Assembly: GCA_963762545.1 (NCBI GenBank)
Contig: CAVXLC010000001.1
Coordinates: 279,110 to 343,109 of the forward strand
From: an uncultured Gemmatimonadales bacterium
GTDB taxonomy: Bacteria; Gemmatimonadota; Gemmatimonadetes; Gemmatimonadales; GWC2-71-9
Length of the DNA stretch: 64,000 bases
Direction: 5' to 3'
The translations under genes and the position numbers were made by a program. The notes beneath the pieces are model-generated. The model searched no databases. It saw nothing but the letters and a program-made list of their open reading frames with translations, and was not told where the DNA came from. Shown piece by piece: positions 52,480 through 52,710 of this stretch. The stretch's first letter is position 1, and each line of letters opens with the position of its first letter.

Positions 52480-52710
52480 ATGCGCGTTACCATCCAATAC
52501 TGCGTCGTTTGAAACTACGAACAACGCGCCGCCGGTCTGGCGGCGGAGCTCGAGGCGGAATTCGAAGGCATCTCGGTCACGCTGATCCCCGCGTCAGGGG
52601 GAGTATTCGAGGTGATGGTGGACGGAACCCTGATCTTTTCCAAGCAAGAGCTGCGCCGGCACGCCGAACCGGGCGAGGTCGAGCGCCTGATCCGGGCCCT
52701 CGGGGCGTAA
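52480..52710 (+). CDS. SelW/SelT/SelH (Rdx) family selenoprotein, with TGA at 52510..52512 read as Sec
   Basis: It is not in the ORF track because of the in-frame TGA. Own translation: MRVTIQYCVV-U-NYEQRAAGLAAELEAEFEGISVTLIPASGGVFEVMVDGTLIFSKQELRRHAEPGEVERLIRALGA*. It shows a CxxU redox motif, the Rdx core IP..GG.FEV.VDG.LI.SK, and a SECIS-like hairpin downstream. Confidence 0.8.
52527..52545 (+). promoter_or_regulatory. bacterial SECIS-like stem-loop
   Basis: CGCCGCC-GGUCU-GGCGGCG is a perfect 7-bp stem beginning 17 nt after the U of UGA. The apical loop GGUCU is identical to that of the E. coli fdhF SECIS and sits 3 nt further from the UGA. Confidence 0.7.

Follow-up and report, generated by a model that had tools for sequence, protein, structure and literature searches.

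In the 64,000 nucleotides from an uncultured Gemmatimonadales bacterium analysed here (contig CAVXLC010000001.1; we call this whole stretch the window), a short region on the plus strand at 52480-52710 had been proposed, from the letters of the sequence, to hold an unannotated selenoprotein gene of the SelW/Rdx family (the original prediction). We conclude, with a probability of about 0.9, that a SelW-like selenoprotein of the Rdx family, 76 residues long, is encoded by a functional gene in this region, and judging from the comparative sequence data the UGA at its codon 11 almost certainly encodes selenocysteine (Sec). The argument is carried by the conservation of the TGA and of the reading frame around it, by the family to which the read-through product belongs and by a hairpin just downstream of the UGA that fits the published model of a bacterial selenocysteine insertion sequence (SECIS) and that covaries among the orthologues.

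Direct translation from the ATG at 52480 through the TGA at 52510-52512 to the TAA at 52708-52710 gives a product of 76 aa, MRVTIQYCVV*NYEQRAAGLAAELEAEFEGISVTLIPASGGVFEVMVDGTLIFSKQELRRHAEPGEVERLIRALGA, in which * is the in-frame TGA (codon 11). This is exactly the frame and the peptide that had been quoted, and the claimed gap of about 330 bp without an open reading frame (ORF) before the phosphofructokinase gene pfk was also found: 329 bp separate the DUF4015 gene from pfk and the mechanical ORF list gives only fragments of about 30 aa inside. The selenoprotein gene was missed in that list because ORF finders stop at TGA. An upstream in-frame TTG at 52414 was considered as a possible start as well and was rejected, because the start codons of the orthologues align with ATG 52480, which is also preceded by the GGAG.

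The in-frame UGA and the protein family

A scan of one genome per species gave us a set of 80 orthologous loci, nearly all of them from Gemmatimonadales metagenome-assembled genomes (MAGs), and the homologous codon is TGA in every one of these loci (80/80). Each of the 81 sequences compared contains exactly one internal stop and neither a frameshift nor a second stop, the start codon is found at the same position in 79 of them and a Shine-Dalgarno-like motif is present at -20 to -4 in 35. On both sides of the TGA the alignment varies as a coding sequence does, the entropy of the third codon position being about twice that of the other two: before the TGA it is 1.16 compared to 0.61 and 0.52 for positions 1 and 2, and after the TGA 1.28 compared to 0.74 and 0.52. 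The codon-like conservation that had been claimed past the TGA was thereby borne out, and the orthologues, which the original prediction had proposed to align in order to see whether they carry Cys or Sec at this position, keep both the TGA and the frame 3' of it.

TGA is also the commonest true stop in the window, where it terminates 18 of the 31 Pfam-supported genes, and it is the terminator in 58 of the 80 orthologues of the selenoprotein gene itself. The genetic code is therefore the standard one, and in those orthologues one and the same codon would have two meanings over a distance of about 200 nt. Many database homologues show a Trp at the Sec position, where the DNA has TGA, and many homologues of 55-67 aa result from gene calling that placed the start behind the TGA. 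Public protein sets contain the gene in two wrong forms (P0003-P0007 and others; L085:177-273; L089:10001-10174), one of full length with the Trp from a TGA=Trp table and one of about 57 aa starting after the TGA. The only non-TGA forms that we found are TGT (Cys) in L084:564-660 and CGA (Arg) in L087:698-794; each differs from TGA by one base, occurs on a single short contig and has an intact hairpin, and they are either very recent Sec-to-Cys and Sec-to-Arg changes that left a 'fossil SECIS' or sequencing errors.

With Cys replacing the stop, the read-through product matches the Pfam hidden Markov model (HMM) of the Rdx family (PF10262) with 78.3 bits (cutoff 22.6, E=5e-22) over residues 2-72, which cover profile positions 1-73 of 74. 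If X is put at the Sec position the score is 71 bits, and the part behind the TGA (65 residues) still reaches 54 bits by itself. The NCBIfam equivalog NF041051 'SelT/SelW/SelH family (seleno)protein' gave 93 bits at a cutoff of 88 and TIGR02174 'CXXU_selWTH' gave 63 bits at a cutoff of 34. Sequences of solved structures were also matched, namely 2fa8 (Atu0228, 1e-10), 3dex (SAV_2001, 2e-9) and MIEN1. In 2fa8 and 3dex the TGA is aligned with the second Cys of the CxxC motif (CTQC), so that it does fall on the second redox position of C-V-V-U as the original prediction had stated, and Cys8, the first Cys of the motif, is invariant in 17 homologues.

For the fold we used an AlphaFold2 model of P0001, an orthologue that naturally has Cys and is 64% identical in alignment A1; the predicted local distance difference test (pLDDT) score is 92.5. 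The model contains the elements E2-8, H14-27, E32-38, E43-47, E50-54 and H66-74, that is strand 1, helix 1, strands 2-4 and helix 2, and its CxxC motif is located between strand 1 (2-8) and helix 1 (14-27), in agreement with the layout beta1, CxxC/CxxU, alpha1 that had been read from the window sequence. In Foldseek the P0001 model matched 2fa8 with a template modelling (TM) score of 0.90 and mouse SelW (2npb) with 0.71, and generic thioredoxins ranked below these. Membership in the Rdx/SelW family, as originally proposed, is thus supported by curated HMM thresholds, by matches to solved structures and by the fold prediction for an orthologue. The function of bacterial SelW-like proteins has been described as unclear (PMC1088965); the product of the window gene would be a small thiol/selenol oxidoreductase with a Cys8/Sec11 selenenylsulfide as its redox centre.

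The hairpin downstream of the UGA

A perfect 7-bp stem, CGCCGCC/GGCGGCG, begins 17 nt after the U of the UGA, just as the original prediction had described it. In the published model of bacterial SECIS elements (PMC13188914) an apical loop of 3-9 nt is carried by an upper stem of 4-16 bp (Fig. 2A therein), at least one G is present in the first two loop positions, usually in the pattern N1-G-[G/U]-N-N2 with N1 and N2 being able to pair, the distance from the UGA to the loop is 16-37 nt and the minimum free energy (MFE) is -7.5 kcal/mol or lower. The hairpin at 52527-52545 agrees with all four of these published criteria. Its loop has 5 nt (3 nt if a G-U pair closes it) on a stem of 7 bp, and the loop sequence GGUCU follows the pattern, which is present in 81/81 sequences with N1-N2 being G-U in 55 and A-U in 26. 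The spacing between UGA and loop is 21 nt (52513-52533), ungapped and identical in 81/81 sequences. The MFE in the window is -14.0 kcal/mol for the hairpin and -16.5 kcal/mol for the UGA plus 39 nt, and the published limit is reached by 79 of the 81 hairpins and by all 81 of the longer segments.

From the alignment RNAalifold returned the same helix unaided, together with a loop-closing G-U/A-U pair. The covariation score of 0.180 was reached by none of 500 shuffles (0.096 ± 0.007), the proportion of paired cells is 94.4% compared to 16-59% in slid registers, and 31 cells are changed on both sides compared to 9.5 ± 2.2 in the shuffles. At the base of the stem, alignment columns 48/66 pair the synonymous third position of an Arg codon (CGN) with that of an Ala codon (GCN). 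This basal pair is G-C in 45, A-U in 23 and C-G in 5 sequences and is therefore paired in 73 of 81, where 51 are expected, a count that was reached by 0 of 10,000 shuffles. Between nearest-neighbour sequences 13 pairs differ on both sides of 48/66 and all 13 remain paired, and several independent double changes are seen on the tree.

Compensating changes that are not synonymous were found as well, in L047 with GCCAUC/GAUGGC (peptide AIGLMA) and in L062 with GCCACC/GGUGGC (peptide ATSLVA), and the loop has the same G2 and U5 in all sequences although the residue encoded there can be Gly, Ser or Arg. The covariation points to selection on the structure of the hairpin beyond the encoded peptide. 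The hairpin is also a clean case of an RNA structure shaping a protein sequence, because the amino acids change in compensating pairs and the stem is kept.

Decoding of the UGA and alternative readings

That 80 species strictly keep the UGA together with a covarying SECIS strongly, if indirectly, supports the decoding of Sec in this lineage, and standard bacterial Sec insertion is the most likely mechanism. Translation would start at ATG 52480 behind the GGAG and the ribosome would reach the UGA at codon 11, where the hairpin, with its 7-bp G+C stem and the loop GGUCU 21 nt past the UGA, would act as a bacterial SECIS. SelB-GTP carrying Sec-tRNA(Sec) would bind the apical loop while the ribosome is at or near UGA-11, Sec would be inserted in place of termination and translation would run on to the TAA at 52708. 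The resulting protein would adopt a thioredoxin-like fold (strand 1, CxxU loop, helix 1, strands 2-4, helix 2) with a Cys8-Sec11 selenenylsulfide centre. In this scheme we infer the binding of SelB, the actual insertion of Sec and the redox chemistry, and likewise the operon discussed below.

Several points weigh against a Sec-decoded gene. No selA, selB, selD or tRNA-Sec was found in the 64-kb window or in the 80 flanking loci: ARAGORN detected no tRNA in the window or in 60 orthologous loci, a Pfam search of 41 window ORFs gave no SelA, SelB or SelD (AIRS) domains, tblastn with E. coli SelA, SelB and SelD gave no match in the window and the 80 flanking loci, and two ±10-kb neighbourhoods of orthologues contained no Sec machinery. 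The evidence for the fold comes from the P0001 orthologue, 64% identical, rather than from the window protein. Rfam gave no match at gathering thresholds across the whole window, and in a permissive scan of 52400-52800 only chance-level matches appeared (narK, E=6.8; a snoRNA, E=9.8), neither of them on the hairpin. The single-sequence fold has a z-score of -0.85 in a context of 69% GC and is not distinctive; as the z-score is uninformative at this G+C content, the support for the hairpin is comparative and not thermodynamic. The tree on which the switches were counted was built on 192 nt only. The sequence conservation of the hairpin is largely confounded with that of the conserved peptide RAAGLAAE, and we therefore looked for signals that the peptide cannot explain. 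Finally, columns 52/62 of alignment A3 (window 52531/52541) are mismatched in 23 of 81 sequences, A-C in 19 and U-C in 4; the window has G-C there and two compensated sequences have A-U. The mismatch is a tolerated or perhaps even functional irregularity, loosely like the bulge of the fdhF element.

It is nevertheless extremely unlikely that the TGA is a genuine stop, be it in a decaying pseudogene or upstream of a shorter product that starts behind it. TGA is indeed the main stop codon in the genome and gene callers do give many products of 55-67 aa starting just past it, but substitutions in the first ten codons, ahead of the TGA, are of the coding type, the start codon is kept in nearly all sequences, and the Pfam match runs across the TGA, which itself is aligned with the catalytic second Cys downstream of the invariant Cys8. 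All 81 sequences are free of frameshifts and second stops, and initiation at GTG 52612, the first start codon after the TGA in the window, would remove strand 1, helix 1 and strand 2. A UGA that is read by means other than Sec, through a reassigned code (Trp or Gly) or a near-cognate or suppressor tRNA with the hairpin only slowing the ribosome, would be in line with the Trp displayed by several database homologues and with the lack of Sec machinery in the window and the flanking loci. The Trp, however, is an artefact of the TGA=Trp table, and the termination of 18/31 window genes and 58/80 orthologues by TGA argues for the standard code. Moreover, the UGA occupies the redox-active Cys/Sec site of a family known for CxxU selenoproteins (PMC1088965; TIGR02174) and the hairpin, down to the invariant G of its loop, agrees with the SECIS model of the SelB type, and we regard such a non-Sec reading as very improbable.

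The hairpin might also be no SECIS at all, being either a side effect of encoding the peptide RAAGLAAE in G+C-rich DNA, where alanine codons (GCN) naturally yield GC-rich self-complementary runs and the fold z-score of the single sequence is unremarkable, or an intrinsic terminator of the minus strand, for which a consensus scan flags the stem 52527-52545 as a terminator-like site. We rejected the terminator because no minus-strand gene ends nearby, as DUF4015 starts at 52391 and runs away from the site and pfk is on the plus strand; its T-tail is poor as well. A mere by-product of the peptide is contradicted by the pairing of synonymous third positions in Arg CGN and Ala GCN well above expectation, by amino-acid replacements that come in compensating pairs (AIGLMA, ATSLVA) and by a loop whose G2 and U5 stay fixed while the residue shifts between Gly, Ser and Arg. 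In addition, the distant Cys homologue P0051 is without RAAGLAAE, which hints that the peptide motif follows an RNA requirement. A hairpin without SECIS function is in our opinion exceedingly improbable. As a side observation, consensus scans for terminators can mislabel coding-region hairpins in G+C-rich DNA.

Genomic context and comparison with known systems

The coordinates of the selenoprotein gene, its elements and its two neighbours are listed in Table 1.

Table 1: Position of the SelW-like selenoprotein gene, its sequence elements and the adjacent genes within the window.
Feature	Position	Strand	Details
SelW-like / Rdx-family selenoprotein gene	52480..52710	+	76 codons + TAA, one in-frame UGA; translation, HMMs, 80 full-length orthologues
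Shine-Dalgarno-like GGAG	52471..52474	+	5 nt 5' of the start codon; direct reading
Redox motif Cys8-Val-Val-Sec11 (TGC GTC GTT TGA)	52501..52512	+	aligned with CxxC of 2fa8 and 3dex
In-frame UGA, selenocysteine inferred	52510..52512	+	TGA in 80/80 orthologous loci
SECIS hairpin	52527..52545	+	5' arm 52527-52533, loop GGUCU 52534-52538, 3' arm 52539-52545
True stop TAA of the selenoprotein gene	52708..52710	+	translation
pfk (phosphofructokinase)	52721..53857	+	10 nt 3' of the selenoprotein gene; Pfam PF00365, E=3e-102
DUF4015 gene, divergent upstream neighbour	51318..52391	-	Pfam PF13200, E=1e-92

The gene pfk follows directly downstream on the same strand in 69 of the 80 loci and in the same arrangement in L089, and DUF4015 is found upstream on the minus strand in 14 of the 80. 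The distance between the selW stop and the pfk start is a -4 overlap ('ATGA') in 19 loci and +1 in 10 loci, next to the gap of 10 nt in the window. The selW-like gene is probably co-transcribed with pfk, and the conserved pair has the appearance of an operon of two genes that may be translationally coupled; the arrangement may also be a case of simple inherited synteny within one order. In L048:3001-4170 the selW frame runs into pfk as one frame of 389 codons, in which the selW stop and about the first 40 PFK residues are missing, which may reflect a deletion or fusion in frame or else an artefact of the assembly.

Our literature search gave no paper in which selenoprotein W, phosphofructokinase and an operon are connected. 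That the two genes form a functional unit, in which Sec insertion at UGA-11 gates the expression of pfk or phosphofructokinase has the SelW-like protein as its dedicated redox partner, seems unlikely to us. If the gating were true, limiting selenium or SelB would lead to a stop at codon 11, about 200 nt would be left untranslated and pfk would be uncoupled or polarised, so that glycolytic flux would be tied to selenium or redox status. The linkage to pfk is the sole element that might hint at the function of bacterial SelW-like proteins. With respect to lifestyle, a trend has been reported that ties the use of selenoproteins to low oxygen (PMC1794560), and this aerobic soil phylum appears to keep Sec strictly (80/80 loci, no stable Cys form).

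Elsewhere in the window five large paralogous genes with a duplicated MacB_PCD + FtsX permease architecture form two tandem clusters (7313-14728 and 28106-33617), and an HlyD-family gene is located at 5301-6629. Two ORFs of about 950-970 aa, 15236-18154 (-) and 38068-40911 (-), show no Pfam match and an atypical composition, the G+C content being higher at the first codon position (0.83-0.88) than at the third (0.71-0.77), and are possibly shadow ORFs, cast by genes in a different frame or on the opposite strand. The 495-aa ORF at 54233-55720 (-) matches 6-pyruvoyl-tetrahydropterin synthase only at residues 344-486, its last ~140, and is without a Pfam match in its ~340 N-terminal residues; it is adjoined by a pterin-4a-carbinolamine dehydratase gene (53880-54227), and a product of 494 aa with a 6-pyruvoyl-tetrahydropterin synthase domain is called in an independent contig. 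A generic scan of the window for a UGA followed by a hairpin gave two further sites, 62489 and 58235 on the minus strand, which were rejected because each is located within a Pfam-supported gene that uses a different frame or strand.

The closest point of comparison for the hairpin in our analysis is the SECIS of E. coli fdhF, whose sequence TGACACGGCCCATCGGTTGCAGGTCTGCACC... has identical copies (100%) in the fdhF genes of over 5,400 E. coli genomes. Both elements are located just 3' of the UGA within the ORF, carry the identical GGUCU tip and have the same presumed role in binding SelB. Counted from the U of the UGA, GGUCU occupies nt 22-26 in fdhF and nt 25-29 in the window, so that the original prediction of the same loop one codon further away was accurate. 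The upper stem of the fdhF SECIS carries a bulged U, whereas the window stem is a perfect 7-bp G+C helix with no bulge, and the 23 of 81 orthologues mentioned above instead are mismatched (A-C or U-C) at a single position of the stem. The window hairpin consequently departs from the fdhF type, which has the loop at nt 22-26 and the bulged U. Because its loop is 3 nt further from the UGA and the bulge is missing, the window hairpin is not a copy of the fdhF element; it fits the general bacterial SECIS model and would work like the fdhF element.

On the protein side, the P0001 model superimposes on the solved Cys-containing Rdx proteins (Atu0228 2fa8, SAV_2001 3dex, P. fluorescens 2obk and V. 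cholerae 2p0g) with TM scores of 0.85-0.90 and on mammalian SelW (2npb) and MIEN1 (2ljk) with 0.71-0.76, all with a thioredoxin-like fold. The solved Rdx proteins and SelW have their CxxC/U motif between strand 1 and helix 1, as the orthologue model does and the window protein would. The solved bacterial proteins differ in having CxxC and not CxxU and in their chains of 103-108 aa, which are ~25-30 residues longer than the window protein. Mammalian SelW has a eukaryotic SECIS in the 3'-untranslated region (PMC1088965, Fig. 7 legend), unlike the window gene with its SECIS in the coding region.

Bacterial SelW-like CxxU selenoproteins were described in 2005-2006 (PMC1088965, PMC1794560), and among the selenoprotein families in the Sargasso Sea data the SelW-like one was the most abundant (PMC1088965). 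Models and names for the family already exist at NCBI and JGI, and orthologues of the window gene are listed in JGI data as 'selenoprotein W-related protein' or 'selT/selW/selH-like putative selenoprotein'. The novelty implied by the original prediction is therefore not given, and the term 'unannotated' is justified only insofar as ORF finders stop at the TGA. Searching the literature for Sec use in Gemmatimonadetes, Gemmatimonadota or Gemmatimonas, including the supplement text of PMC5029168, we found nothing relevant, and the position directly 5' of pfk is unmentioned in the searchable literature on prokaryotic SelW-like selenoproteins.

In summary the finding is correct but ordinary, an annotation miss in a known family, which changes neither the known mechanism of Sec decoding nor the knowledge on the SelW family. 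Its practical value is one of annotation, as the gene is invisible to ORF finders and its public forms are truncated or carry a false Trp, and its recognition would mark this Gemmatimonadales genome, and the order as sampled (80/80), as users of Sec. With the prokaryotic SelW-like selenoproteins the window gene has in common the family, the CxxU motif with Sec in second position, the small size, the fold and a SECIS in the coding region past the UGA. Cys forms of SelW-like proteins are rare in Sec-using organisms (PMC1794560), and they are nearly absent in the window family as well. Nothing fundamental differs between the window gene and these selenoproteins, the window lineage being one of soil-type Gemmatimonadales MAGs with 69% GC.

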